This document shows positions 18,867 to 33,570 of a stretch of 64,000 bases of DNA, in pieces. The stretch spans positions 3,584,001 to 3,648,000 of the forward strand of contig OZ244170.1 in NCBI GenBank assembly GCA_965216565.1, in the 5' to 3' direction. A program made the position numbers and the translations under genes. This stretch comes from Bythopirellula sp. Its GTDB lineage: Bacteria; Planctomycetota; Planctomycetia; Pirellulales; Lacipirellulaceae. Positions within the stretch are counted from its first letter, which is position 1. Each line of letters begins with the position of its first letter. The notes under the pieces are model-generated. The model was not told the origin of the DNA. It did not search any database and saw only the letters and a list, made by a program, of their open reading frames with translations.

Positions 18867-19400
18867 ATGCCCGCAATCCCCGTGTTGACCCATGATCTGC
18901 GAACATTGCATGGGGCCAACGTGCGACGGCTCATGGCCCGACTGAATCTGACACTGCAAGACGTAGTCGAGGCCTCGGATCTCGACGAAAGGACCGTGCG
19001 CAGCATTCTGCAAGGCGTCACACGACCCCATGCCCGTACGCTCCACAAACTAGCCACAGGCCTGGGAGTTGAGGCAGACGAGCTATTTCAGGATCTATCG
19101 CACACCCATCGAGCTTCCTTCGACCGGGCTACCAATCCCGCTGTTTCGGCGGCAATCGATGCCGATCCCCAGCGGTTCGCAGACTGGACCCCCGCCGAGT
19201 TTGAAGAACTATTCAGCCGCATGGCGGTGGGAGGCGAACTGACCGAAGAGGGCGTCCTCACCTCGGCCGAGGCGATTAATTCGCGTCGTCAATTGATGAG
19301 CCAGATAGCTGTGATTCTAGAAAGCGGCGAAGCCGATCACCTGCGCGAGTTTGTCGCCATGCTCTATCATCGCGTGACAGATGTCAGCCATCTCACGTAG
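18867..19400 (+). CDS. XRE-family helix-turn-helix regulator, convergent with the capsid cluster
   Basis: NVRRLM...LTLQDVVEASDLDERTVRSILQG..RPHARTLHKLA.GLGV. Confidence 0.85.
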   Translation: MPAIPVLTHDLRTLHGANVRRLMARLNLTLQDVVEASDLDERTVRSILQGVTRPHARTLHKLATGLGVEADELFQDLSHTHRASFDRATNPAVSAAIDADPQRFADWTPAEFEELFSRMAVGGELTEEGVLTSAEAINSRRQLMSQIAVILESGEADHLREFVAMLYHRVTDVSHLT

Positions 19401-20040
19401 AAACGCGCACTACTTTGGCGATGGGTAACTTGTCGATCCGCGCTGCCTGCTCGATCGATTCCAACCGATAGATTGCGCCATCGGAACCGACGAAGCGATC
19501 GTCCGACTCCACAGGAAACTGCTCTCCCATGACAATTGTAAACCGCTCGATAGCGGTGGGAGCATTGGAGGTGTCGCTCACCGTAGTTTCATCCGGCTGA
19601 ATTCGCACTGGCATCGCAGTATAGACATCGTCCCAACTAGTGATCTCAGGCCCCTGGCCCAAGTCTTGCCAAACGGCCCGCTGTACGTCTACAGAATCGT
19701 CGCAGCCCAAGGCAACGCGCAGTTCCCGCGTTTCGCACTTCAATCGGCCTAGCAGCGAATGCTGGTCCACTGCCAACACAGTCCACTGAGAATCGTCGGC
19801 ATCGATGATGATGTCCCCCAGTTCCAACCGTGTTCCAGCATCCGGCAATTCCAAATACCACACGGCATCCGATTGAACACTCGTACCACCACTCGGCTCA
19901 GCTTCACTCGAAATCTGCTCTCGACGCAGCGAGGTAAGACCGGCCACGAGCGATCCTGACTCGCGCTTACGCAGGGACACGGTTTCCAAACCATCTACCG
20001 AAGTTACAAAATCTTGGCTAGGATCAAACTCAATGCTCAT
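19393..20040 (-). CDS. Putative head-closure/head-tail joining protein (two similar beta domains)
   Basis: Last gene of the head operon; two halves ending GDIIIDADDSQWTVLAV and DDRFVGSDGAIYRLESI. Confidence 0.5.
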   Translation of the reverse strand: MSIEFDPSQDFVTSVDGLETVSLRKRESGSLVAGLTSLRREQISSEAEPSGGTSVQSDAVWYLELPDAGTRLELGDIIIDADDSQWTVLAVDQHSLLGRLKCETRELRVALGCDDSVDVQRAVWQDLGQGPEITSWDDVYTAMPVRIQPDETTVSDTSNAPTAIERFTIVMGEQFPVESDDRFVGSDGAIYRLESIEQAARIDKLPIAKVVRVST

Positions 20041-20255
20041 CCGGTAGTTCCTTCCGACCTAATTTCAAAAGGATCGCAATCAAGCAACTTGCGATCGCAC
20101 CAATCGACGGTGCGCTGTAGCGACTCGACATAGTCAACCCAGGCAACACTTTGGCCATCAATCGAATAAGTAGGTTTGGGACTGGCTCGTAGCTCTTCGA
20201 GCTGCGTCAGCGTCTGAGCTCGAATTGTGGAAATCTGCTCGGTTTCGCTCGACAT
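20037..20255 (-). CDS. Putative head-completion adaptor (gpW-like)
   Basis: Small helical protein with a KPTYSIDGQSV.W hairpin motif, downstream of the capsid gene. Confidence 0.55.
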   Translation of the reverse strand: MSSETEQISTIRAQTLTQLEELRASPKPTYSIDGQSVAWVDYVESLQRTVDWCDRKLLDCDPFEIRSEGTTG

Positions 20256-20257
20256 GG

Positions 20258-20656
20258 TTAGATACACCTCAATTGGAAACGGAAAATGGTTTTCTGCCCT
20301 GTAACGGGCGTTAGTTCATAACGAACTTGATAGACCTTGCCGGCGTCAGGAAATGCTTCGTTCGTAGAGACATAGATTTCGTGCCGGAAGTTGTACCCAT
20401 CGCTATCTACCGTCCAGGTGTCGTCGGTTTGCAAGCTGTCGAACACCACGTCACTAACCGTCAACGAGACCGCATCGTGACCCGTGACGGCACTCAAGCC
20501 AGAGGGGTCGTTGGTCGTTAGTTCGTAGATGCTGTATTCGATTGACGAAACAGATGCCTGGTTCAAATACTGCCCCGACGCGTTGACGACCCGAGCCATG
20601 AGAACGGCAGAACCATTTCGAAACACTTTTGATTTGAAATCAGCCGCTATCGGCAT
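20258..20656 (-). CDS. Hypothetical beta-rich virion-associated protein
   Basis: 132-aa ORF tightly coupled within the head operon. Confidence 0.55.
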   Translation of the reverse strand: MPIAADFKSKVFRNGSAVLMARVVNASGQYLNQASVSSIEYSIYELTTNDPSGLSAVTGHDAVSLTVSDVVFDSLQTDDTWTVDSDGYNFRHEIYVSTNEAFPDAGKVYQVRYELTPVTGQKTIFRFQLRCI

Positions 20657-20727
20657 TTACTCGCTCCTTCCAATTGAAGTGGTCAATCACAACAGGCCCC
20701 TGGCAAAGGCAACTCGCCGCTAACACG

Positions 20728-21492
20728 TCACGCCGCAAACGCTTCGGCCCCAACATTTTCGATTCCTGAGAGATTGACCTCCGCACGCTCGGCTCCATCT
20801 GTTTGCAAGCCCTCCTGCTCGACTGTGTAGGGCCCCGAGAAACGGCAAGGCTGAATGACGGCCTGGCCTCCACGCGGCATGAGCACCCGAGGGTGTTCGG
20901 TCGCGATTGTCCCTCCGGAACTCGTCGCAACTGGTCCCCAACCGGGATGGTTCAACCGGCGTACGCAGTTGTGGTAACAGAGTAAGTTGCTTAGATCGGA
21001 GATCATTAGCGGAGAAATCCCGGCTGCCAACGCCTGGATGTCACCGTCTTGCAGAGCGATATCCAATAACGCAACTTCCGCAGCATCGACTGCGGTGCTT
21101 GTGGCAAGGTTCCCCAAGCTGAAATCATTGACGCCATCAAAGAGTCTTTCGTGATTCACTTCGGTTTGGTTCCCACCGTCCAAATAGACACGCCTGGCAG
21201 TCGCCGATTCAAAGACTCCCGTCACTTGATGCCATTGATTCGCAGACATCGGCGCAGTCGACCGTGCCGCACTGGTACTGGAAACTCTAGATATCGCAAC
21301 CACTTGATTCGCATTATGTCCCTCGTAGTTCAATCCGTGATACGATCCCGTCGTCGTGTTGCTGACACGCATCAAGGTCATCAACGTAGAACTGCTTGGA
21401 ACGCGGAACCAACCCGTCAAGGTAAACGGATAGTCCGTCACAGATAGCGAACCAAGGTCTACTAGATTGCTCGATCCTATTGCCAAAGCCAT
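20728..21492 (-). CDS. LamG/concanavalin-A-like domain protein
   Basis: PFTLTGWFR, NQWHQVTGVF, RRVYLDG, AEVAL.D.AL...I..LA motifs. Confidence 0.75.
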   Translation of the reverse strand: MALAIGSSNLVDLGSLSVTDYPFTLTGWFRVPSSSTLMTLMRVSNTTTGSYHGLNYEGHNANQVVAISRVSSTSAARSTAPMSANQWHQVTGVFESATARRVYLDGGNQTEVNHERLFDGVNDFSLGNLATSTAVDAAEVALLDIALQDGDIQALAAGISPLMISDLSNLLCYHNCVRRLNHPGWGPVATSSGGTIATEHPRVLMPRGGQAVIQPCRFSGPYTVEQEGLQTDGAERAEVNLSGIENVGAEAFAA

Positions 21493-21498
21493 CGTTGG

Positions 21499-21984
21499 TT
21501 ATGCCTCACGCAATTCTAAGGAAATGAGTTCCACGTCTCCCACCAACGTGTCAGCCACATCGGCCGCCTGGCGATTCACTAGCACCTGCAGAACATCGCC
21601 TGCGGCTAGCCCCGTGACCGCGATGGAATCGCTCACGGCAACAACGATGTCTCCGCTAGTTGCAGGGGCTGCGGTGGTTACTTGGCTGCTTCCACTCGCC
21701 GTTGGAGGAGAATCGAGGTTATCTCCAGCGGCAAAATGCACGAGTTCAACCTCGAATTTGCAGTTGCCCGTTACAGCCGAACTGGTTGTCCAAGTCAAAA
21801 GGGCTTCGATCTCACCGCCCGCAAAGTGGCTTGGGACAACCGCTTGAAATTGAGCTTGCTCTTCCGTGGAGTCATCAAAGTCCAGCACCACAAAGTCGCC
21901 TCGCATGTCGACCGTGGCAAAGTCGGCACTTGGCGGTCGATTGGACAATGCGTCGGCAGTCATCAAAGAATCACCGCTTGCCAT
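21499..21984 (-). CDS. Hypothetical jelly-roll virion/fibre-like protein
   Basis: LDFDDSTEE and AAGDVL.V.V.R.AADVADTL.GD..L motifs; AGGGAG RBS before ATG 21984. Confidence 0.55.
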   Translation of the reverse strand: MASGDSLMTADALSNRPPSADFATVDMRGDFVVLDFDDSTEEQAQFQAVVPSHFAGGEIEALLTWTTSSAVTGNCKFEVELVHFAAGDNLDSPPTASGSSQVTTAAPATSGDIVVAVSDSIAVTGLAAGDVLQVLVNRQAADVADTLVGDVELISLELREA

Positions 21985-22083
21985 TTGCTCTACACTCCCT
22001 TCGATTCGTTTGTTGGCATGGAGAAATATTTGTGAATGGCCAGCCACCAGTGCATTGCTGACTGGCCATTCACTCTGGAAGTG

Positions 22084-23244
22084 CTAGCCAGTGCACTTGA
22101 CGACATACCGAGGGTTGAGAACCGCTGGAGCCCCACGTTCGCTCGCCTTGAAGCGAAGCACGATATCATTATTGAAATCGGCTTCACTATTGATGGGTGC
22201 TTGCGTCACCGTAATTGGCCAATTCTCCATGTAGGCGAACGCCTTCGAGAAGTCGCCGATAAACCAGTACTTCTTCGCATCGGCGGCAGCAACGCCCGAG
22301 TTCACGAGCCGCCGGTAAGCAAGGCGACTTTGCTCCACTCGATAGTTGCCCAAGGGATTGGTAGCGGTCGTCGTGGTCGGCAGGCCCGATCCCACGTATG
22401 CAATCTCCGTGGCGTTGAACACGCGATGAGCGGCATGGCGATAGGCTGGCATCACCAACACGCTTGTCCCGCTAACGAGAACGGGTTCGCCGGTCGCTGG
22501 ATCGCTCATTTCGGCAAACAACTGCTCAGCAGCATCGACATTGGTCCAGTCTACTAACTCGTTCGACGCCAGCAGATTCGCCCAACTGCCAGCGGCAGAG
22601 AACGTATTGAAGTTTGCCCCGTTCTGGTTGAAAGAGTTGGTAATACCCATCACGGTATCGAGTAACCGCTTCTCTTTGTTGAGCCCCAACACCTCGCCTA
22701 CCTCAGCGGCACGCGACAAGATTAAGTTAGTCCTGTCGAAGAAAATCGCTTCTTTCGTCACCGGGACAATAAAACCATGCTTGGCAGTTGACGGCGTTTC
22801 GATGTAGTCTTCGCCGAATCCGAGATGAGGATAGGGCATTCCGTTCCCTACTTCGTCGATTCGATCCTCAATGCGATTGACTCCCGGGATCTTTTCTCCA
22901 TCGAATCGTGTCGGAATCGTTTGAACAAGTTTTGATGCAACGAAGGCTTCCTGGGAATAGGAGTCCAAGATTTTCGAATAGATCACCTGGCCTGCGATGT
23001 TTAGAAATGCGGTGACATCGATTCCGTCGGACGACTCCGTCAAGCTTACTGAACCGCTGCTCCGGGGATCGAGCATCCGCACCCAATGACGGCCTTCGGG
23101 GACGAGTGCCTCCGCCAAATCGCGGATGCTAAAATCTTCTGGTTTCAGATGCCCTTCACTGAGCGATTCGGAAAGATGCCGAACCGTGTTTCCGGCTCCG
23201 TCCAGATCGTAACGCCTCTTAAGTTCTCGATAGTTCAAAGTCAC
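22084..23244 (-). CDS. Major capsid protein (HK97-fold, Mu gpT-like)
   Basis: Position after protease and decoration genes; EVGNGMPYP, KHG.IV.VTKEAIFFDRT, LVMPA and WFIGDF motifs; AGGAG RBS before GTG 23244. Confidence 0.82.
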   Translation of the reverse strand: MTLNYRELKRRYDLDGAGNTVRHLSESLSEGHLKPEDFSIRDLAEALVPEGRHWVRMLDPRSSGSVSLTESSDGIDVTAFLNIAGQVIYSKILDSYSQEAFVASKLVQTIPTRFDGEKIPGVNRIEDRIDEVGNGMPYPHLGFGEDYIETPSTAKHGFIVPVTKEAIFFDRTNLILSRAAEVGEVLGLNKEKRLLDTVMGITNSFNQNGANFNTFSAAGSWANLLASNELVDWTNVDAAEQLFAEMSDPATGEPVLVSGTSVLVMPAYRHAAHRVFNATEIAYVGSGLPTTTTATNPLGNYRVEQSRLAYRRLVNSGVAAADAKKYWFIGDFSKAFAYMENWPITVTQAPINSEADFNNDIVLRFKASERGAPAVLNPRYVVKCTG

Positions 23245-23306
23245 AGATTCTTCTCCTGTTTTGCGGGTAGTCTGATTCTGGCTCTCTGCCTCATCACTCT
23301 TCGAAA

Positions 23307-23780
23307 TTAGGCGGCCGCCTGCGGACCTCCGCGGACCACTGTGCTGACGACATCGACAAACACACTCGTGCTGGCAGTTGGAACCCGCTTCACGCACCGT
23401 CCAATGGCGAGGTTCGCAGAAGCGACCCCTTCTACAATCTGGTCTTCCAGCTCCGTTCCCAAAGCTTCTTCGGCACCGCCGATGAAGTCGCCAATCTCAA
23501 ATGTTGACGAGCTGCACTCGAACTCAAACACGCCACTCGTGGCGACTCGAATGGAACCCGATGATTCCGCTGGTGAGGCCTGCATCGCGACGCCAAGAAA
23601 CTGGTCGTGCAATAATTCTTGATTTGCTGCCGGTGTTCCCTGGTCAGTCAGACCCGAGGCCGGCTTTGCCGTCCCACTATCGAGTACGACCAGATCGCCA
23701 ATTTCGATTCCCGCTGAACTCGAAACCGGCATGAGGATCGGATTCGTCTCTCCGTAACGCCAACGCATAGAACTTGCCAT
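23307..23780 (-). CDS. Head decoration/capsid cement protein
   Basis: IEIGDLV, FLGVAMQAS and IRVATSGVFEF motifs; between protease and capsid genes. Confidence 0.65.
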   Translation of the reverse strand: MASSMRWRYGETNPILMPVSSSAGIEIGDLVVLDSGTAKPASGLTDQGTPAANQELLHDQFLGVAMQASPAESSGSIRVATSGVFEFECSSSTFEIGDFIGGAEEALGTELEDQIVEGVASANLAIGRCVKRVPTASTSVFVDVVSTVVRGGPQAAA

Positions 23781-23829
23781 GAATTTCTTCTCCTGAATTT
23801 AGGGTGTGCAAATAGACAATCGGCTTTGT

Positions 23830-24792
23830 TTAGTTGAGGGAGCCAACACGCTGAATAGCCTTGGCAAACGCTGAAGCACCTTCCGGCTCATTGGAAGGCT
23901 GAGATTGCAGAGCAATTTGATCGACGGAGCGAGGAATCCTGGGCGAGTTTAGTTTCGAGGATGTACCAGCCGTCTCAAGAAGTTCAACCCGCTCCAACAC
24001 TAGCTGTTCGAGTTGCGAATCGTCTTCGATTGCGAGCAACATCTCATAGAAAGCCCGGCTTACCGTTTGAGGCCCCGCAGCACTCCTGTTGCCATTACCT
24101 TCCCGGTGCTTTGGTAAGCGAAGCCCATGCTCACAGAGCAACTCCAGCGTCTTCCTCTGTCGGGCGAGCCCCGCACATCGAACTTCCGACTCTTGCAACT
24201 TTTCACGCAGGCTCTCAGCACTTTGACGACTGTGCTCCTCGAGTAAATCTGGGCGACAATTCTGCAGATGCTCCAAAGTAAGCTCATTCCACTTGAGCCC
24301 TTCTTGATCGTACTCGTACAAACCCAGCGTCGCGGCAGGATCGGCGACCAAGTCGACACTTTGAACATGCGTAATCTCTTCCACCACAGTCGATTGCCCA
24401 TCTCGCGTGACACGTGCGAGTACGTTGTGAGAGACTCCCACATTCCGAGGATTGTGCTCAGCATCCCAAACCAGTTGCTCCGCCAAAGGATGTTTGGGAT
24501 TGAAATGCAAGTCTCCAAACAGCCCTTCGCTTTCGCGAAACTGAACCTCCCGAATCACGCCCAGCCGATCCTGGTAGTCGCGTGGCGATAAGGGCCCGCT
24601 CTTGGGATGATTCACGTTGACTTTTGCTCCTTCATAAAGCGATTGAGCCTTCCGCAGTGCATTTGGTTCATACACCCGGCCATTGCGCGAGGTGAGTCCG
24701 ATAAGCTTCACTCCCTTGAGCACGCCGCGTTTCGAGTCGACACGAAGCGTTGTTCCTTGCGAGTCGACAAATTCTTGTAGAGCTTCGGCCAT
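23830..24792 (-). CDS. Prohead protease/scaffold fusion
   Basis: GVKLIG..SRNGR.Y, VNVNHP, VGVSH and VQSVDLVADPA motifs; coiled-coil C-terminus. Confidence 0.75.
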   Translation of the reverse strand: MAEALQEFVDSQGTTLRVDSKRGVLKGVKLIGLTSRNGRVYEPNALRKAQSLYEGAKVNVNHPKSGPLSPRDYQDRLGVIREVQFRESEGLFGDLHFNPKHPLAEQLVWDAEHNPRNVGVSHNVLARVTRDGQSTVVEEITHVQSVDLVADPAATLGLYEYDQEGLKWNELTLEHLQNCRPDLLEEHSRQSAESLREKLQESEVRCAGLARQRKTLELLCEHGLRLPKHREGNGNRSAAGPQTVSRAFYEMLLAIEDDSQLEQLVLERVELLETAGTSSKLNSPRIPRSVDQIALQSQPSNEPEGASAFAKAIQRVGSLN

Positions 24793-24824
24793 TGTCTGTC
24801 AGTCCTCATTCATCCTTAGTGAAT

Positions 24825-24870
24825 AAAAAAAGCCTCGGACAAAAACCTCAAGGGTTCTCGTCCGAGGCTC
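24825..24870 (-). terminator. Intrinsic terminator/attenuator upstream of the protease-capsid genes
   Basis: AGCCTCGGACGAGAACC-CTTGA-GGTTTTTGTCCGAGGCT followed by a T run. Confidence 0.85.
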
Positions 24871-24943
24871 GATGGGATACGCCTGCCGCTCAATCAGCAC
24901 ACGCTCTTTTCGATACCTGTTTGCCTGGGGTCGCTTACGCCGC

Positions 24944-25123
24944 TTACTTCACCATCCGATCTACGTTGACCCGTGTGTACTGAATGTGTCCGTCTTGTAC
25001 GTTCACCGTCACACTTGCGGTACCAAAGAAGCCACGACCACTGACGCTTTCGATGAGCCTGTCAAATTCCTGACGGGCTTGGGTGCTTCGATCAGTCGAA
25101 TTCAAAGAGTTTTGTTTGCTCAT
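24944..25123 (-). CDS. Small YezD/DUF2292-like protein
   Basis: 59 aa, helix followed by GFFGTASVTVNVQDGHIQ..RV. Confidence 0.55.
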   Translation of the reverse strand: MSKQNSLNSTDRSTQARQEFDRLIESVSGRGFFGTASVTVNVQDGHIQYTRVNVDRMVK

Positions 25124-25168
25124 GATGGGTCTCACTTTAGCAAAATGCGAAGGTCATTTCAGCAACTA

Positions 25169-26572
25169 TTATTGGCCACTTTGGTTGGCCGATTCGTCAC
25201 GATGCATGAGGATGTTCTTTTGCTCCTGGTCATAGTCGAGCCCCAACCGCAGGCTCCATGTTTGAGGTGAAATTAGTCCATTGTCGAACGCCACCTTTTC
25301 GACCTGGCAGTCTCTTACCTGGTCGCGCACCCGTAGCGACGGAGGTGTGATCTGAAGTTCGATCAATTTTCGGGTGTCGCGGTGTAGGCGTCCTTGGGCG
25401 ACCGCATTTTCGATTACATGCCACATCACGCGGCGATCGTCTTCAATGACACTGGCCTGAAGTCTTTCAAACATTTTTACCGCAGGACCCTCTGCTACGA
25501 GTGTCGAGGCATAGTTTGAATTCGAGGCGTCGGAAGTAAACATATACTCTGGCATCACCAGCCTGGCGGCCACGGCACGCAGCTCTGCCTGTAGCACGGT
25601 TACGAAATTACTGGCGTTGATCCCCGCAGCAGGAAAGTCGTACTCGGTGCCGTCAGGGGCATCGAGAATCGTGCCCGGTGAATACTGCGAAAGCTGACGT
25701 CGCCGGCCACTTGCCGGGTCAAGACCACTCGCTTCGCTATTACCGCTGACAAACTGTTCGACACCCGTGCGAGAAGCGCCTCGATGCTTGCGAATTAACG
25801 CAATTGCCGACTGAATTTCTGAAACAATGCTCATGTTTCGCAGCAGTTTTTCTATCCGACGCAGATTCTTGCTCACCGGGTAATACAGGGGCAAACCTCG
25901 TTTCACGTTTCGATCCACGTTTGCCTTTCGATGCTGAACCTCCGTGGCAGGCACCACCTCACCGTCAACAAAATAGGACAAGACCGATTCCACATCATTT
26001 GCCTCTGTATGAATCCCAAAACTAGCCTCCGGACTCTGTAGGAGTTCCCGCGGTGTGACTACTTGATCTGGCTCAACAAATCGAACACGAGTAATACCTG
26101 CGGAATCAACAAAGAATCGAAGAAACAGCTCTCCGTCGCGATCCATACGACGCATCATCTCCTGTTGCCTTGATTGCCATGAGTTCTCTTCCATAAACTC
26201 CTCGAGCAGTTTTTGCACATCCATTTCCAAATTGGTCGGAGCATTAGCACCTTTCCGAGCTGACGCCCGATAATGATGACCGACCCCGACGACATAGCTC
26301 GTCCGGTTTTCAATGCCGTTAATTGCAAACTCATTGGTTGCTACCAAGCGTCGACTCTGTTGGCGGATCTCTGCCAGTTGCTCAGTATTCCCATATGGCA
26401 CGCTGCGGGCTGGGACGCTGCCCTGTTCGCTGGACACAACGTTCCACCAAACGCCATCGTCGTGCACATAGGCTTCAGAGGGATCGACCAGTTGACTCCA
26501 CAACGCATCGCAAGCTTCGGTCAGGCGTTGTTCTAATTGCGCTTGGCTATTGCCGTTTGCCATCGTTGTCAT
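25169..26572 (-). CDS. Phage portal protein
   Basis: RDGELFLRFF, VRFVEPDQV, RGLPL and DASNSNYAS motifs; follows the terminase gene. Confidence 0.88.
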   Translation of the reverse strand: MTTMANGNSQAQLEQRLTEACDALWSQLVDPSEAYVHDDGVWWNVVSSEQGSVPARSVPYGNTEQLAEIRQQSRRLVATNEFAINGIENRTSYVVGVGHHYRASARKGANAPTNLEMDVQKLLEEFMEENSWQSRQQEMMRRMDRDGELFLRFFVDSAGITRVRFVEPDQVVTPRELLQSPEASFGIHTEANDVESVLSYFVDGEVVPATEVQHRKANVDRNVKRGLPLYYPVSKNLRRIEKLLRNMSIVSEIQSAIALIRKHRGASRTGVEQFVSGNSEASGLDPASGRRRQLSQYSPGTILDAPDGTEYDFPAAGINASNFVTVLQAELRAVAARLVMPEYMFTSDASNSNYASTLVAEGPAVKMFERLQASVIEDDRRVMWHVIENAVAQGRLHRDTRKLIELQITPPSLRVRDQVRDCQVEKVAFDNGLISPQTWSLRLGLDYDQEQKNILMHRDESANQSGQ

Positions 26573-26652
26573 CGTTCTTGCTCCCGATTTGTTTAACGTG
26601 TTGAAATGGATTCATGGATACTAGTTGACTGTTGTGTCATCCTCGATACGAA

Positions 26653-28269
26653 CTATCCGACTGCCAATCGGTCGCCCAGACCATCGTCGGGAATGTTCTG
26701 GTTCACACTACCAATCAGCCGCACTGCCATCTCGAGGGCGTCCGGACCATCGTCGTGAGCGCCCAGCGGAAAGTCGCGCAGTTGGTCTACAAGTAGCGTG
26801 GTTGAGACGGAGCCTTGCACAAAACGCAAACGCCGCTGCGAAAGCAATGCCTCCAATCGGCGTATTCGAGATTGCTTATTCAGAGTATTGTGAATCGAAC
26901 AGACTTGTAGCGAGCGGAGCCCGCGTGTGTTGCACTCCCGACGAAACTCGTCGGCTAGCAGTTCTTGAAACTGATTGGCTTCTACGCCAAAGGTATTAAC
27001 CCGATGCCGCTCGCAGAGCGTCAACCCATCGGCGACCATCTGCGAGATATGCCGTTTCGCCAAATCGGCTTCGACGTACATGACTCCGCGATCGTCCATG
27101 CCTAGGACAACAAAAGCAGAGTAGTCGCCCTGTCGAGACTGCACGCCTTTGCTGGGATCCAAAGCAATTACTTTCCGCGGCAACTGTTCCGGCCACGCTT
27201 GGAACCACACGTGCTCGCCAAAGTACTCATCCGGCCATTCGCAACGTTCGGGATCGATCGGTGAACTTTGCTTTTCTCTCTCAAATGCACTGCGGCCTTC
27301 TTCCACACACATTTTCATCAGCGTGTATAGATCCTCTTCCTCAGGCCATAAGAGTTCCGCACCTTCATCCATTGCCTTTCTGTTCTTGACATAGAAAAAC
27401 CAAGCATCGCGGCGGGCAGAGTGGTTGCTGAGATCGCAATATATCGTTTCCCATCGCTTCCACAGTGCGTCGTTCGTGGGCCATTTGAGAATTGCCTTGA
27501 ACTTCTTCGAACGCCACCCTGGATTGCGATCGAACTGCATCGCCAGCGCATCGCGGTGGAGGGCTGTTGCTAGGTTGAGAACGTTCGTGTGCTTGGTCCC
27601 CGCCTTGAGTAGGGTTCCATGAAACCAGCGCGTCGAGCTTTCTCGGAGCGTGGCCGATGCCATGTGGTCATCGTTTTGCAAATCATCGCAGACGATCAGC
27701 GAGGGGCGAGACTCTCTGATTCGTCTGCCTCGCAATCGCTGCCCAGTTCCAAAACCTTCGATCACAACTCCATTTGGAAGAATCATAGAACCACGTCGCC
27801 AGCGGGCCCCGCGTCCTGTTGCCTGCGGAAAGTCGCGCGCCAGGAGCGGATTGCCCTCTAGCTCGGCTTTGATGTTCTCCAGATGAGTTTGTGCCTGGTC
27901 CTTGGTATCGGAGACTAGCCAGATGTAAGGCTCCCACGCATCTAGTGCCGCCCGGAGGATGTAGCACAGACTTCCAATGGTCGACTTGGCCCCGCCTCGC
28001 GGGCCGATGACATTGATTTTCGTGCCGCGCTGGTTGTGCATATCGTCCAGCTGCTGTCCTAGCCAGCAGTGCATAACCGAAGGCTGCCGGTGGAAGTGCC
28101 GCGGCAAGTAGCGACGGCCCCACGATAGTGTGTCGAGCTGACTACTACGTTGCTTGCACCGGATACGTCGGCCAATGCCCTGGAACAACGCACGCGACAA
28201 TCGGCTGACGTGGCTATCTACCTGGCACGAGTCGGAGTTGGGGTCGATTCGCCGCCTGTGGTCACTCAT
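26653..28269 (-). CDS. Terminase large subunit
   Basis: Walker A GPRGGAKST, Walker B LIVCDDLQ, nuclease ALDPS..GDYSA, VEANQFQ and HDDGPDAL motifs; ATG overlaps the small-subunit stop. Confidence 0.92.
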   Translation of the reverse strand: MSDHRRRIDPNSDSCQVDSHVSRLSRALFQGIGRRIRCKQRSSQLDTLSWGRRYLPRHFHRQPSVMHCWLGQQLDDMHNQRGTKINVIGPRGGAKSTIGSLCYILRAALDAWEPYIWLVSDTKDQAQTHLENIKAELEGNPLLARDFPQATGRGARWRRGSMILPNGVVIEGFGTGQRLRGRRIRESRPSLIVCDDLQNDDHMASATLRESSTRWFHGTLLKAGTKHTNVLNLATALHRDALAMQFDRNPGWRSKKFKAILKWPTNDALWKRWETIYCDLSNHSARRDAWFFYVKNRKAMDEGAELLWPEEEDLYTLMKMCVEEGRSAFEREKQSSPIDPERCEWPDEYFGEHVWFQAWPEQLPRKVIALDPSKGVQSRQGDYSAFVVLGMDDRGVMYVEADLAKRHISQMVADGLTLCERHRVNTFGVEANQFQELLADEFRRECNTRGLRSLQVCSIHNTLNKQSRIRRLEALLSQRRLRFVQGSVSTTLLVDQLRDFPLGAHDDGPDALEMAVRLIGSVNQNIPDDGLGDRLAVG

Positions 28270-28732
28270 CTTGCGGTTCCTCATGAGTCTCGTCGGGTTC
28301 TGCTTCCGCCATCTGGGCCATTTCAGCAAGTTTCATTAGTACGCGATCACGATCTTCCTCGCAGTTGACGCTAGTGAAAATCACTTCGATCAGCTCTTTC
28401 AAATATTCCTGCAGATCCTTGGTGGTCACAGGCTTGCTAGAATTCCGGTTTCGACGCCGTTTTGCTTTTTGCTCCAACCACCAGGTGGCTGCGCGCCAAT
28501 GCTTTTCATCCTCGGCCGCCTTGTGAACCGCCTTCATACGATGAAGTTCCGCCATCCCTTCGCTGCGTAATAACTCTTGGGCGAACTCTGAGTCGTCCTC
28601 CATCTGTTTTTGAAGTTGAACGATGGTCGCACGCATAGCCTGTGCGGCGGACGCCCGTTCGCAACCCATCTGCACCATGTGACAGATCGCGTGTTTTTGT
28701 TCTGTGGAAAGAGGGGGCGTTGATTCGGGCAT
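28262..28732 (-). CDS. Putative terminase small subunit
   Basis: N-terminal HTH-like segment and WRAATWWLE motif; directly upstream of TerL. Confidence 0.65.
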   Translation of the reverse strand: MPESTPPLSTEQKHAICHMVQMGCERASAAQAMRATIVQLQKQMEDDSEFAQELLRSEGMAELHRMKAVHKAAEDEKHWRAATWWLEQKAKRRRNRNSSKPVTTKDLQEYLKELIEVIFTSVNCEEDRDRVLMKLAEMAQMAEAEPDETHEEPQDE

Positions 28733-28790
28733 ACACGAGGCGATTGGGGCGAGTCAATCCGTTAAGGCTTGTTCATTTGATTCGTTGCGG

Positions 28791-29942
28791 CTAGTCCCCG
28801 ACATATTCAAACGACACCACAGCCCGGCCGGCGGAACTTCGATAGTTGGCAAACCGTTGCGCATTGGACCGGCCCGAGCCAGTTTTCTTTACGCTAACCG
28901 CTTTCCATTGTGTAGAACGTTTGCAATGGCGAATGAGCGATGGGTGACTGCTGGTGACGTTGATCCGCAATCCCTCTGCGCGATGCAGCGACGCCACGGC
29001 AGCCACCACCCGCATGCCGATGCCCATGCCTTGAAAATCTGGCAGCGTCACTATTCGCGTGAATCGCCTGTGACCTTTCTTCGCAATCACAGGAAGCGTG
29101 GCACAAAACGCCACTGGCTCGCCCTCCCAGGTGGCCAGGTAGCTGCGCGCTCCGATGGCAAGAGAACCGCTCAGATAGTGATGCTTCGCAAACAGTTTCC
29201 AAGCAGCCAATTTCGAGCGGTGGATTTCCAATTGAATTGGGGGTCGCCGAAGACGCCTCCGGTGCAGTTGACGCGTGGCCATATCCAAGACCCAATCCGC
29301 CTCCAGCCACTCCGCCACGTCGTAGTGGCAGGTGACCGCTACGAAGCGGCGCGGGATATTCCTCTTGCGAACTGCCTTGGAGATGGCCGTCGAGCAGGCC
29401 TTGGCCACATTGCGATCAACCACACTCGTGAACTCATCGAAAACGACTAGGGGTCTAGAGTCTAGAGACGAGAGCCCAGAGCCACTCTGTCCGCGAGTCT
29501 CTTCTGGCTCTCGACTCTCGTCTCTAGACTCTCGACTACCCAATAACGCCTTGGCCAGATTGCAACGAAACTGTTCGCCACAACTTAGCACCTGGTAAGG
29601 TTTGATCCAGGAAGGCGGCGAACTGAATCCCACTGCAGTGAACAACTCGACAACTTGCTTCACTGGCAAATCCTCGAAGCAGTCGAGCACGGATCGTTCT
29701 GCTGGCCAGCTCTCGGTGCTATAGAGTTCTTCTCCGTACAGCTCATTGGCAATGGTACTTTTTCCGCTTCCCGAGGGGCCCACGATCAGACCGATGTCCC
29801 ACGATTCCTGACGACTGGGTGTCTCCACCGAGAACTTCTCGGAAACCCTCTCCTCTAGCGGCACATCGAACATGCCTGCCACCTGCTGCACTCGAAACGA
29901 ATCATAGATCGGGCAACTCACTACAACGTCAACACTCGACAT
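28791..29942 (-). CDS. ABC-type ATPase fused to a GNAT acetyltransferase (Mom-like)
   Basis: GPSGSGKST, LSCGEQFR, FDEFTSVVDR, CHYD, FAKHHYL and RIVTLPDFQGMGIG motifs. Confidence 0.85.
   Translation of the reverse strand: MSSVDVVVSCPIYDSFRVQQVAGMFDVPLEERVSEKFSVETPSRQESWDIGLIVGPSGSGKSTIANELYGEELYSTESWPAERSVLDCFEDLPVKQVVELFTAVGFSSPPSWIKPYQVLSCGEQFRCNLAKALLGSRESRDESREPEETRGQSGSGLSSLDSRPLVVFDEFTSVVDRNVAKACSTAISKAVRKRNIPRRFVAVTCHYDVAEWLEADWVLDMATRQLHRRRLRRPPIQLEIHRSKLAAWKLFAKHHYLSGSLAIGARSYLATWEGEPVAFCATLPVIAKKGHRRFTRIVTLPDFQGMGIGMRVVAAVASLHRAEGLRINVTSSHPSLIRHCKRSTQWKAVSVKKTGSGRSNAQRFANYRSSAGRAVVSFEYVGD
29451..29541. repeat. Palindromic heptamer-repeat element inserted in frame in the ABC-GNAT gene
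   Basis: TAGAGTC-TAGAGAC-GAGAGCC-CAGAGCC ... CTGGCTC-TCGACTC-TCGTCTC-TAGACTC-TCGACTA. Confidence 0.75.
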
Positions 29943-30478
29943 CGACGCCCCTCCTCTCGCATACGCTCGTAGATTTCGCGCTGTTCCTCTTCGTTGTCGC
30001 ACTGCACAACGACTTGAAATAACTCGGGAATTTGCAATTCTGCTTCGGCCAGCGAATCTTCTCCGCCATTGGCATGTGCTCCCGTCTGCAATTGATCCAG
30101 CATTTCGGCGACATGCGGACTATCGAAATCGCATAGCCCCAGCAAGTCGTCTACCTGGCCCATGTTTGTTTCAGCCAACGCCGCCAGGGGATCGTGCGTT
30201 AACAGAATCTTCAGGGCTTCCTCTTCGTTCACGTCGAGCACCAACACCGGCACCTTGGCATCAGGTGTGGTTTCGGCGCGGAGATGCCCATCAATTAATT
30301 CCAATCGGCCGTCCTCCAATTCTCTGGCCAGCAGTGCATCGGCATAGCCAATCTCCGCAAGCACGCCGCATAAGGCATCGCGTTGTGCGGGAGGATGGCT
30401 ACGCCAATTCCTGGGATTAGGCACCAAGTCGCTGGCCCGAACGCGACGCAGCTCTTTTATGCGATCCTGTATTTGCAT
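29921..30478 (-). CDS. ParB N-terminal domain protein (terminase-linked)
   Basis: LVPNPRNWRSHP, IGYADALL and LIDGHLR motifs. Confidence 0.85.
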   Translation of the reverse strand: MQIQDRIKELRRVRASDLVPNPRNWRSHPPAQRDALCGVLAEIGYADALLARELEDGRLELIDGHLRAETTPDAKVPVLVLDVNEEEALKILLTHDPLAALAETNMGQVDDLLGLCDFDSPHVAEMLDQLQTGAHANGGEDSLAEAELQIPELFQVVVQCDNEEEQREIYERMREEGRRCRVLTL

Positions 30479-30505
30479 CTAATGACTTTCTCTGCAATCA
30501 GTCGC

Positions 30506-30805
30506 TTAATGCTGTTTAAGCAACTGCCTGACCAAGTCGCGGACCTCTTTGATTTCGCTGCGCAGTTCCGTCCGCATGCGTTGGTTGCCTATCTCGATGG
30601 CTGCCAATCGGGCTTGAACTTCGCCGATTTCCCGAGTGGAAACGTAGTCTCTCGCATTCCTGGTAGCGAAGTCTTCCTCGGGTTCCGACGGCGACGCCAC
30701 CGTGGTGGCCACGGCACCCAGAATTGCCGTAATCAATGTCGCCGCCGCAGGCCAACTTAGCTCTCTGCGATGGGGCTTCGTTTGCGATGGTTCAGTTTGG
30801 TCCAT
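30506..30805 (-). CDS. Small single-TM coiled-coil protein (holin/spanin-like?)
   Basis: WPAAATLITAILGAVATTVA hydrophobic segment followed by a heptad-rich tail. Confidence 0.55.
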   Translation of the reverse strand: MDQTEPSQTKPHRRELSWPAAATLITAILGAVATTVASPSEPEEDFATRNARDYVSTREIGEVQARLAAIEIGNQRMRTELRSEIKEVRDLVRQLLKQH

Positions 30806-30820
30806 ACACCTGGGCCCTTC

Positions 30821-31501
30821 CTATTGAACTTTTCCACCTGCGGTTTCGGAACGTAAGTTAGGCGAGTCACCTGGCCCCAGTGGCTCTTCGCTTGGCCGTA
30901 CACCAGCCGCCATATCGGTACGATTCGCATCGCCAGCAAACGCATTGAGGTATTCCAAAACTTGCACGTAGTTGCCGTACATTCGCATCGAATCGTTGAC
31001 GTAAATAAACGTGCCGCGAAATCGACTTTCCAGGCGCGTCCAATTGCAGATAGCTCGATCAATCGCGCCTAGCAGAATCAGCGCGTTCTGACTGCGGAAG
31101 TTGAGTTGACTGCTGACGGGGATATTGGGATCGCTACCGTCTACCGCCCAGGGCAACGCAATCAAGCCACCAGGAGCGTCCTGAACGTCGTCGCCGCCAA
31201 AGGGCTCGGTCGAACCCAATAGAGTTTGGTTCGAGTCGATCGCACGCTCGATAAGTTCTCCCAGCGGAGTTTTCTCCGGATTGTAGGTCACCCGGCGACG
31301 CATCCGATCGCAGGCTAATAAATGTGAGATGTAGTGCGACTTGGTGGTATTATCGAGACCGCCCCGCACACCGAACTCATCGTTTGAAACCACTTCGCTG
31401 CGAAAATCGAACAGGGGTCCCAACGCGGCCACGATATGTAAGTTGCGAAATTCAGAGATTGCCCGACGAAATTGTTCTTGTCCTGGGTCACCAGCTGGCA
31501 T
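30821..31501 (-). CDS. Hypothetical protein of the capsid cluster
   Basis: 226-aa ORF with AAGGAG RBS. Confidence 0.7.
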   Translation of the reverse strand: MPAGDPGQEQFRRAISEFRNLHIVAALGPLFDFRSEVVSNDEFGVRGGLDNTTKSHYISHLLACDRMRRRVTYNPEKTPLGELIERAIDSNQTLLGSTEPFGGDDVQDAPGGLIALPWAVDGSDPNIPVSSQLNFRSQNALILLGAIDRAICNWTRLESRFRGTFIYVNDSMRMYGNYVQVLEYLNAFAGDANRTDMAAGVRPSEEPLGPGDSPNLRSETAGGKVQ

Positions 31502-31503
31502 GG

Positions 31504-31857
31504 TTAGTTCTCCTTTGTCTGAACTTGAAGTTTGGTGGGAGCAATTTCATTGAACCGCTCTCGTAAATCTCTTCTCAACGCGTCAGCCCAACTTCGCTCG
31601 TCCTGCGACGAACGGTCACTGTCGGCAATCGCATCGAGTCGATCGAGTGCAAGCCTTCCTGCAACCGCATCTTGTAACGGGTCACGTCCCTCATGTCGCG
31701 AAAGTTGTAGAAGTTGTCGAGCCTCATGGTCGTCTCGCTGGATGGGTTGAAATATGGCCGCCGATTCGTCGGCGACCTCCTCTTCTTCCTTAGATGCTGC
31801 GGTTGATTGCTGCGTACTATTCCCCGAGAAAGGGACGCCGACGACCTCGGGCGTCGT
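31504..31857 (-). CDS. Start-less helical ORF, possibly a frameshift extension of the protease
   Basis: 117 sense codons (...QRDDHEARQLLQLSRHEGRDPLQDAVAGRLALDRLD...KEN*); it fills the gap and stops 2 nt before the next ATG; no ATG or GTG, and the only TTG is near the 3' end. Confidence 0.6.
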   Translation of the reverse strand, partial: TTPEVVGVPFSGNSTQQSTAASKEEEEVADESAAIFQPIQRDDHEARQLLQLSRHEGRDPLQDAVAGRLALDRLDAIADSDRSSQDERSWADALRRDLRERFNEIAPTKLQVQTKEN

Positions 31858-32908
31858 TCAATCGGTTCTTCATTCCGCGTCCCACTAGCCAACCAGCCAC
31901 CGTCCCAACGGCCAGCACTGCCCAGCCTGCGGGACCGCTGAGCCCGAGAGTCGTGGCGATCTTACTGCCAACGTGTTTCCCAACACCGACGCTTCTTGAG
32001 GCAACCAGGCTCCTCACTTTTTCTAGAATCGAATCTTGCTGGGAATCAAGTTGTTGCCGGGTCGCATAGTCGCCACTCGGTTGCTTTTTCCGCTCGAGCC
32101 TCTCAACGTCGGCCGCCAATCGATCAAGGCGCGCGTCTCGCACAATTGAAGATTCTTCGCGCTCGGCGATCCGTGGCTGTTGGGGATGCTGTGGAATCGG
32201 CGTGAGAGGCTGCGCGGGTTCGGGCATGGCAGGGCGAGGACAGAGTCCGTTAGGGCAGTTCACCACAACCTGCTGTTTGCGACCGAGAACTCTACCTACA
32301 AAGCTTCGCAAGGGACGCCCGCAGCTGGCATACGTTACCCCATCTCGCTGGCCCCAAACCACCGCAACGAGCTGGCCGCGGTCATTGAACACCCCGCCCC
32401 CAGAGTCGCCCGTTCGCACTGCACTTCCCAACAACACACTCGTCTGCCCTTGCTGATTCGAAGTACCCACGGCCAGGCCCGAAACACATCGATACTGACC
32501 CGACTGGCCATACCCACAGGCGGTCAAGTTTGATTTCTGATTTAGTTCAAACGCCACAGGCGCTGGTTGCACAGGTGGATTGGCGATCACGAGCGCTGCC
32601 AGGTCAGCAGATTCATCAAGCGCGACTAACCGTGCCCCGTACGTACGGCCACTGGCAAACTGCACTACAATCTTCCCCGTACCTTCGCGAAACAGGTGCC
32701 AGCAACTGAGCACCAGCCCCGCACGCTGGTCGTTCGAGCAATCGATCAACGTACCGCTGCCGACGTTCGAGAAACCTGATAGCTGGTTGAGGACGCGACA
32801 CGACGCCTCCGCAGGTACGCTTGCCTCTGACCTTGTTGCACATAGCGATATCAAAGCCCCGAGCGCGAATGCAATGGTAAGCTTCTTAGAAATCGGTAGG
32901 TTTCGCAT
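31817..32908 (-). CDS. Secreted trypsin-like serine protease with C-terminal membrane segment
   Basis: Signal peptide; GSGTLI, LSCWHL, DLAAL and GDSGGGV catalytic triad motifs; C-terminal GPAGWAVLAVG.VAGWLV. Confidence 0.88.
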   Translation of the reverse strand: MRNLPISKKLTIAFALGALISLCATRSEASVPAEASCRVLNQLSGFSNVGSGTLIDCSNDQRAGLVLSCWHLFREGTGKIVVQFASGRTYGARLVALDESADLAALVIANPPVQPAPVAFELNQKSNLTACGYGQSGQYRCVSGLAVGTSNQQGQTSVLLGSAVRTGDSGGGVFNDRGQLVAVVWGQRDGVTYASCGRPLRSFVGRVLGRKQQVVVNCPNGLCPRPAMPEPAQPLTPIPQHPQQPRIAEREESSIVRDARLDRLAADVERLERKKQPSGDYATRQQLDSQQDSILEKVRSLVASRSVGVGKHVGSKIATTLGLSGPAGWAVLAVGTVAGWLVGRGMKNRLNDARGRRRPFLGE

Positions 32909-32909
32909 C

Positions 32910-33500
32910 TTAGACCCCCGCCAATGTAAAGCGATATCGATAGAACGGACTACGGGCCAGATCGGCGGGTTCTGTCACCCGGTCGGCCAAGTGCGGCACC
33001 GGATCGATGCCTCCCCCTACACGATCAGCCAGAGCGCAGGCTTCTGAGCAAAACGGCGGTCGGCTGGTAATCTTTAGATCATCCATATCTGGACGCACCC
33101 ACAATCGCCACATCGGCATGTGCCGCAACGCGGCGAGGAGCACGCCGAAATATCCGTAGTCGCAGCCAGCCAACCGCCGAATGTACCTCACAGCACCCGG
33201 TTGGTCGTAACCTCGCCAACGATCGCCGGGATTGGTTTCGAACACGTCAATCGATCCGGGCAGTCGTGCCACCTGGCTTTCCAGTGTCACGGCACGGCCT
33301 CCCTGCAGTTCGCGCACTTCGCAGCAAAACAAGGTATCGCCCCACCAAACCGCTCGCGCCGCATGGGTGTATTCGCTACGACCCGCGATGCGAATCAAGC
33401 GTGCCAAGAATCCGCGACCTCGAAAGAGCAATAGATCGCCGTCGCAGATGCGATCTTCCGCGTGCCGAAGCAACAACAAGGATCGAAAGTTGGTTTCCAA
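32910..33500 (-). CDS. Permuted papain-like (YiiX/YaeF, NlpC/P60) protein
   Basis: DGDLLLFRG, YTHAA, G.DY, FCSE and VTEPADL motifs; GGAGGGG RBS before TTG 33500. Confidence 0.75.
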   Translation of the reverse strand: METNFRSLLLLRHAEDRICDGDLLLFRGRGFLARLIRIAGRSEYTHAARAVWWGDTLFCCEVRELQGGRAVTLESQVARLPGSIDVFETNPGDRWRGYDQPGAVRYIRRLAGCDYGYFGVLLAALRHMPMWRLWVRPDMDDLKITSRPPFCSEACALADRVGGGIDPVPHLADRVTEPADLARSPFYRYRFTLAGV

Positions 33501-33527
33501 GAGTGTTTCGCCCCTCCGAGTGCGCAC

Positions 33528-33570
33528 AAAAAAAGCCCGGCGAGAACACAATGGTCCTCAGCCGGGCTCT
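33528..33570 (-). terminator. Intrinsic terminator/attenuator in the leader of the cluster's first gene
   Basis: AGCCCGGC-TGAGGACCATTGTGTTCTC-GCCGGGCT followed by a T run. Confidence 0.8.

Follow-up and report, generated by a model that had tools for sequence, protein, structure and literature searches.

Probable +1 frameshifting at a conserved UUU_Y site in a membrane protease gene of Bythopirellula and related planctomycetes

A trypsin-like serine protease gene of Bythopirellula sp. is likely to encode two proteins that differ in their C-terminal parts. The gene lies in the window, that is, the whole stretch of 64,000 nucleotides that was analysed, and its last codons overlap a start-less reading frame in the +1 phase. 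From sequence comparison, the likely explanation is programmed +1 ribosomal frameshifting by tRNA-Phe at UUU_C, giving a short form of 363 aa and a long form of 467 aa. The initial annotation had proposed that programmed frameshifting yields a short and a long protease, and this proposal is supported on comparative grounds, namely by the phase, the site, the selection on the tail and the existence of fused orthologues. It had also expected an extra domain after the membrane segment of the long form. That addition corresponds to a linker plus the conserved tail domain; both are fused to the protease in other genera.

In the proposed mechanism, most ribosomes would stay in frame 0 until the TAG at 31817 and produce the 363-aa protease with its membrane anchor and a short basic tail. 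Some ribosomes would slip with UUU (31831-31829) in the P site. The tRNA-Phe (anticodon GAA) would move one base onward, from UUU to UUC, and a G-U wobble would be swapped for a G-C pair. The slipped ribosomes would then read 107 more +1 codons after UUC. The long form would have 359 + 108 = 467 aa, its last 108 residues being encoded from UUC (31830-31828) onward, and it would gain the linker and the conserved tail domain, which is predicted to form three helices and presumably lies in the cytoplasm. We infer that the slip is ribosomal.

The protease gene and the overlapping +1 frame

The translated protease frame contains, in order, an N-terminal signal-like segment, a protease domain with GDSGG, a linker and a C-terminal membrane segment (Table 1). 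Residues 50-183 of the frame-0 part match PF13365 (Trypsin_2) with an E-value of 1.7e-16 and a score of 61.7 bits against a curated cutoff of 27.6. Ser169 (GDSGG), His71 (CWHLF) and Asp102 (ADLAAL), assigned by eye from familiar motifs, are candidates for the catalytic triad. The membrane segment is kept in all orthologues aligned, and after it comes a basic tail, RGMKNRLNDARGRRRPF. The positive-inside rule would place the protease outside and the tail in the cytoplasm. The 3' end of the gene reads CGT CCC TTT CTC GGG GAA TAG, which encodes the peptide ...GRRRPFLGE*, and the heptanucleotide CCCTTTC occupies positions 31834-31828 of the minus strand. All genes described around the protease are on this strand.

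The +1 frame shares an overlap of 41 nt with the protease ORF. It had been described as a protein-like frame of 117 codons that fills the gap to the next gene, and all coordinates of this description check, with the next ATG at 31501. The sole ATG, GTG or TTG of the frame is a TTG at codon 94. The AAGGAG of the following 226-aa gene sits inside the final codons of the +1 ORF, and a homologue of that gene is also found downstream of the protease gene in the fused locus L011.

Table 1. Features of the protease locus and its surroundings (positions in the window)
Feature	Position	Strand	Remarks
Frame-0 ORF, trypsin-like (S1, Trypsin_2) serine protease, short form	31817..32908	minus	363 aa/codons; exported (signal-like N-terminus)
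Hydrophobic membrane segment	31871..31945	minus	about residues 322-346; read from the translation
G-rich SD-like GAGGU	31844..31848	minus	12 nt before UUU, 9 nt before CCC
CCC codon ahead of the slip codon	31832..31834	minus	E-site codon with UUU in the P site; not conserved
Proposed +1 shift site UUU_C	31828..31831	minus	conserved UUU_Y, pinned by L016, L034 and L048
Frame-0 stop TAG	31817..31819	minus	fourth codon after UUU
+1-frame open stretch	31504..31857	minus	117 codons + TAA; opens after TGA 31860-31858; TAA at 31506-31504
Acidic/alanine motif EEEEVADESAAIF, +1 frame	31750..31788	minus	counterpart of E-A-T-A-A-A-x-x-x-F of the fused orthologues
Conserved core of the tail domain (QPIQRDD...RERFNEIAPTKL)	31528..31749	minus	24 invariant columns in the tail alignment of 38 sequences
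Next gene, no family	30821..31501	minus	226 aa; ATG at 31501, 2 nt past the stop of the +1 ORF
Module genes after the protease, in order: 226-aa gene, small membrane protein, ParB-like gene, ATPase-acetyltransferase (ATPase-GNAT), small terminase, large terminase, portal, cement protein, major capsid, lectin-fold protein		minus	

The translated +1 frame has relatives in 21 of 61 related genomes, with E-values of about 1e-30 and 51-74% identity. Across the family, relatives occur in 41 of 120 genomes and in 7 of 24 genera. A search of the window's own genome found no paralogue of the tail, which is a single-copy sequence. Over the 78 codons of the tail core in 21 loci, median pN is 0.13, median pS is 0.52 and the median pN/pS is 0.26; pN is lower than pS in 209 of 210 pairs, indicating purifying selection in the +1 frame. 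Judged from these comparisons, the 117-codon frame is a real coding region.

The consensus of the aligned tails is ...EATAxAxxxF...QPIERDDxEARQLLRLSQLEGRDPLQDAVAGRLALDRLD...RRELRERFNEIAPTKF. An AlphaFold2 model of the tail has three helices (43-55, 60-79 and 85-105) with a mean pLDDT of 68. The tail domain has no match in Pfam or PHROGs. A profile search against the PDB gave a chance-level match alone (E 0.13), Foldseek of the model against the PDB had no match with an E-value of 0.001 or lower, and the top score against the ESM Atlas (0.81) is at chance level. Protein databases contain the domain in two kinds of entries. Among longer proteins, 88 of 228-590 aa hold the tail, nearly all of them together with PF13365, and their source names are those of S1 family or trypsin-like peptidases of Lacipirellulaceae and Pirellulales. 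At a length similar to that of the tail, another 101 matches are stand-alone 'hypothetical proteins' of 70-203 aa, some of them labelled Bythopirellula. As a consequence, the tail is handled as an orphan gene in annotation pipelines.

Fused and shifted orthologues and the junction cassette

The survey of orthologues covered 64 loci, 40 from genomes and 24 from viral or metagenome contigs. The tail is in the +1 phase in 33 loci and in one frame with the protease in 20; two loci are otherwise broken (L033, L040), and nine lack the protease part at a contig end. Viral contigs yielded one relative, at a contig edge and without the protease part. In the 20 fused loci (L011, L021-L029, L031, L032, L038, L039, L049, L055, L056, L060, L061 and L064), protease, membrane segment, linker and tail follow each other in a single frame. 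The existence of such single-frame orthologues means that protease and tail make one protein. The fused loci are confined to genera other than those of the shifted loci.

One of the 33 loci, L035, was set aside because its genus is otherwise fused, its break is elsewhere, it has no cassette and its tail is truncated. The remaining 32 shifted loci come from 21 genomes of three genera and from 11 metagenome contigs; L051 and L059, which look like duplicates of L007 and L044, are counted among them. All 32 share the junction cassette and keep the +1 phase of the tail, and no member of the same clade has the two parts fused. The length of the overlap varies from 20 to 188 nt in the 17 loci of the same genus. 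In a protease-domain tree of 30 loci with a near-complete protease part, all 17 shifted rows of genera g1 and g43 group together in a single clade (support 91/98), and the divergent L037, also shifted, sits apart on a long branch. The shifted arrangement arose once or twice and was then kept through deep divergence, and the shifted loci are not independent replicates. With one or two origins on the tree, the data show long maintenance rather than repeated invention.

Three loci, all from the otherwise fused genus, have breaks of other kinds. L035 (genome G140) has its +1 break upstream of the EATAAA motif in addition to its truncated tail. Of L033 (G129) and L040 (G139), one changes phase within the protease domain and the other has two TGA codons in the tail. 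The conserved cassette is absent from these three loci, and their breaks look like decay or assembly errors.

An in-frame UUU is present in the overlap of all 32 shifted loci and is followed by C in 30 and by U in two (L005, L020). In the long ORFs of this genome, UUU makes up 46% of Phe codons and UUU followed by a pyrimidine 18%. Two kinds of loci delimit the position of the shift. In L016, the +1 frame is closed by a TAA immediately ahead of GGU UUC, which sets an upstream bound, and in L034 and L048 frame 0 ends at a stop two codons past UUU, which sets a downstream bound. As a result, UUU_Y is the only place at which a shift is workable in every locus. The position of the frame-0 stop ranges from the 2nd to the 17th codon after UUU, with the 3rd and 4th as the commonest places. 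In every one of the 32 loci the A site would hold a sense codon, and in 20 the frame-0 codon after UUU is CGN. Only one tRNA-Phe gene, whose anticodon is GAA, is present in the genome. UUU is preceded by CCC in 11 loci, by AGG in 10 and by one of ten different codons in the other 11. The initial annotation had suggested that Pro and Phe tRNAs can re-pair on CCT TTC. Given the frequencies of CCC and AGG, re-pairing of two tRNAs is not the general mechanism.

A second in-frame UUU_CGC occurs in the same gene at 32690-32695 (codons 72-74, CTG TTT CGC, encoding Leu-Phe-Arg within CWHLFRE), with no G-rich motif upstream. This in-frame UUU_C at codon 73 serves as a natural control within the gene and means that the tetranucleotide alone does not define the site.

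The shifted loci share a further element upstream of UUU. A GAGGT had been pointed out 9 nt upstream of CCCTTTC; it is present and is conserved as G(A/G)GGU, 12-18 nt before UUU. The motif GRGGU is found in 31 of the 32 loci, most of which read GGAGGU or GGGGGU at this position, and L016 has GGUGGU. Its spacing to UUU is 12 nt in 5 loci, 15 nt in 24, 16 nt in 2 and 18 nt in 1. In 30 loci the motif is in codon phase, where its two codons stand for Gly-Gly or Arg-Gly. All 30 use GGU for the second Gly; the first codon of the motif ends in A or G in 29 and is never GGC, a codon that accounts for 40% of the Gly codons of the genome. The motif is thus conserved at synonymous positions. In L036 and L037, from the third genus, the motif is in another codon phase with a spacing of 16 nt. 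Another codon phase at a nearly equal distance argues for a constraint on the RNA over one on the peptide. Substitutions between the motif and UUU fall on third positions of frame 0 (CGC/CGU), so frame 0 is the frame that is read up to UUU.

A strict regular expression for the cassette matches 28 of the 32 shifted loci, as against 1 of the 20 fused loci, and has no match elsewhere in this genome. The four misses are L005 and L020, whose longer T run led the pattern to another register, L046, which is too short for the scan window, and L016 with its GGUGGU; the motif of L046 is visible on direct inspection.

The 3' end of the 16S rRNA of this genome contains CACCUCCU. According to PMC6321510, +1 shifting is promoted by an SD sequence adjacent to the E site and -1 shifting by one at 8-11 nt. 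The spacing of 12-18 nt found for GRGGU fits neither placement. RNAalifold places GGAGGU in the loop of a 6-bp upstream hairpin that ends 9 nt before UUU. Its covariation is modest (7 double-sided cells vs 2.0 in shuffles), and a partner slid by 3 columns still pairs at 75-78%. In single-sequence folds, the hairpin is no better than shuffled sequence in five of six loci. With modest covariation and folding at the level of shuffles, the hairpin was dropped as a reliable signal. Downstream of the site, RNAalifold found 0 conserved pairs on 21 loci. GRGGU is a putative stimulator of the slip and might act by pairing with the anti-SD sequence, through a hairpin on the exit side or through the Gly-Gly-Arg-Arg-Arg nascent peptide.

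The 'similar copy' GAGGTCGCCGACG that had been noticed downstream is present at 31779-31767, within the motif at 31750..31788. The EATAAA..F-type motif is common to fused and shifted forms, and the copy is therefore not a frameshift signal. In the +1 frame, the cassette (31835-31857) spells P-E-V-(A/V)-A-x-x-x-F, which resembles the E-A-T-A-A-A-x-x-x-F of 31750-31788, and the same is seen in L002-L034. Such a resemblance suggests that the frameshift cassette may have been born by duplication of the EATAAAxxxF segment, which would also explain the similar copy.

Competing explanations and known systems

A split gene would account for two adjacent frames without recoding. An old break of 1 nt could have separated the parts, the tail now being translated alone from any available or non-canonical start or by re-initiation after the protease stop. 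Gene callers do list the 101 stand-alone proteins of 70-203 aa for the tail domain, SD-like GAGGAG or AAGGAG strings are present in the linker, and at least one ATG, GTG or TTG lies between the site and the core in 19 of the 32 loci. However, the positions of these starts vary among the 19 loci, and many of the candidates lie downstream of the conserved EATAAA..F-type motif, which matches that of the fused forms. Between slip site and core, 13 of the 32 loci have no ATG, GTG or TTG. In seven of the 32 (the window, L004, L020, L034, L036, L046 and L047), none occurs between the point at which the +1 frame opens and the core, and across the set no start is conserved. A split gene also leaves unexplained that UUU_Y is kept in 32 of 32 loci and GRGGU in 31 of 32, when the cassette occurs in 1 of 20 fused loci. 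On this evidence a split gene is improbable, and independent initiation of the tail appears unlikely, with only ATG, GTG and TTG scored as starts; for the 19 loci taken by themselves, separate initiation is conceivable. Recoding could also be the same, with the slip made one codon earlier in this gene by tRNA-Pro on CCC_U (CCC to CCU), and the protein would be identical. CCC_N sites are prone to +1 shifting, the window is among the 11 loci with CCC before UUU, and the genome has tRNA-Pro anticodons GGG, UGG and CGG. Yet AGG and the ten other codons stand in this place in the remaining 10 and 11 loci, most of them cannot re-pair in the +1 frame and the arrangement is still kept, which leaves UUU_Y as the feature common to all. 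In L016, the +1 frame does not open until past the codon before UUU. A tRNA-Pro slip is thus very improbable, and tRNA-Phe at UUU_Y remains the favoured agent.

Errors of sequencing or assembly most commonly show up as a phase break of a single base, and a recent inactivating mutation (a pseudogene) or slippage of RNA polymerase could produce a similar picture. In the metagenome runs X5 and X6, which are independent, contigs break off or begin at 31824-31835, and none bridges the site. They cover both sides of this interval and neither confirm nor contradict the sequence of the site. Two other runs cover the whole stretch, and their contigs span the site with no inserted or missing letter; the indel check at read level, which had been asked for at the outset, is answered to this extent, with the limit that both runs may be the assembly's own source. 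Against an error or decay stands the presence of the same break in 32 loci from separate assemblies, at a protease identity of 40-50%, and against a pseudogene the purifying selection on the tail. Known tracts of transcriptional slippage are far longer than the 3-5 bases of the T run here. Sequencing error, pseudogene and transcriptional slippage were rejected, and together they are scarcely credible. The X5 and X6 contigs derive from a near-identical strain and end exactly at the shift site (31824-31835). Their ends could mark a graph branch at the conserved cassette or variation in the population.

The proposed +1 frameshifting at UUU_Y has several counterparts. According to PMC5009743, UUU_Ynn is a sequence at which bacterial ribosomes are particularly liable to shift +1; E. 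coli has shift-prone sites of this type. In the Mesorhizobium symbiosis ICE, FseA (msi172-msi171) has a UUUC slip, a conserved upstream G-rich region and both single- and two-ORF variants, and its shifting efficiency was measured at 4-13%, as given in the accessible part of PMC4755241. FseA appears to be the closest parallel to the protease junction. Insofar as that source describes it, both systems share the move of tRNA-Phe from UUU to UUC at UUUC, as proposed for the protease gene, an upstream G-rich region and the occurrence of fused and two-ORF homologues. They differ in that FseA is a transcriptional activator of Proteobacteria, whereas here a membrane S1 protease with a helical tail is found in planctomycetes. 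A Trp-Gly feature of the nascent peptide, which the portion of PMC5009743 at hand gives for FseA, is absent here.

TyeA of Yersinia is also produced on its own, whereas several tail ORFs here are without any start codon. For YopN-TyeA, the likely +1 site is UUU followed by a pyrimidine with no adjacent stop, and it joins two adjacent ORFs (PMC5009743, in part). Both systems would thus join adjacent ORFs by a +1 shift at UUU_Y without an adjacent stop codon. They differ in the conserved upstream G-rich element of the protease gene, as none is described for YopN-TyeA in the available portion of PMC5009743. The minimal cassette of influenza A virus PA-X is UCC_UUU_CGU, with no evident stimulators and a very low level of shifting according to the same portion of that source. 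It shares with the protease gene the slip codon followed by an Arg CGN in frame 0 (here in 20 of 32 loci). PA-X operates on the eukaryotic ribosome and, as far as this portion of the source goes, with no evident stimulators, whereas a conserved 5' element is present here. The prfB gene (release factor 2) is likewise a bacterial +1 shift with an internal SD-like sequence upstream. A prfB-type mechanism was rejected here on two counts: in all 32 loci the A site would hold a sense codon in place of a stop, and the SD-like motif stands 12-18 nt from UUU. By these comparisons, the protease junction would combine a site and mechanism of the FseA kind with a new protein family and phylum and an oddly spaced 5' element.

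Well-supported conserved +1 frameshifts in bacteria are few, examples being prfB, FseA, YopN-TyeA and some phage genes. The present locus would add a clade-wide case in a different phylum and protein family. No publication was found on frameshifting in Bythopirellula, and none relevant was found on programmed ribosomal frameshifting in Planctomycetes. The 20 single-frame and 32 two-frame orthologues, with a site mapped to 4 nt and an unusually spaced 5' element, form a natural test set for stimulation at UUU_Y. Annotation can be corrected as well: roughly a hundred 'hypothetical proteins' that are listed as orphans and whose starts are arbitrary correspond to the tail, and the protease is listed as complete.

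Genomic context of the protease gene

The protease gene heads a phage-like head module that lies on the same strand within 19393-33551 (minus; gene order in Table 1). No phage tail genes were seen in this interval. The large terminase is present in 98 of 120 family genomes (20 of 24 genera), mostly in one copy and at 51-69% identity, and on every contig that carries both genes a few kb separate it from the protease. From its sequence distribution, the module looks like a domesticated, vertically inherited and possibly GTA-like element. Nothing relevant was found in a literature search for gene transfer agents and prophages of the family.

The GRGGU element or a small hairpin displaying it might be a new kind of +1 stimulator, acting at a distance so far reported to favour -1 shifting. 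The ratio of tail-less to tailed protease could then serve as an intrinsic dosage control for an element of phage origin that has head genes only, is inherited vertically and occurs across the family, for example by coupling particle assembly in the cytoplasm to a periplasmic protease. This proposal is speculative, and we consider it doubtful.

Two features of the module concern the ATPase-acetyltransferase gene. Its product matches phrog_11143 (function unknown) with an E-value of 2.4e-99. The ParB-like ORF (29921-30478, minus) overlaps the ATPase-acetyltransferase ORF (28791-30002, minus, called from GTG) by 82 nt.
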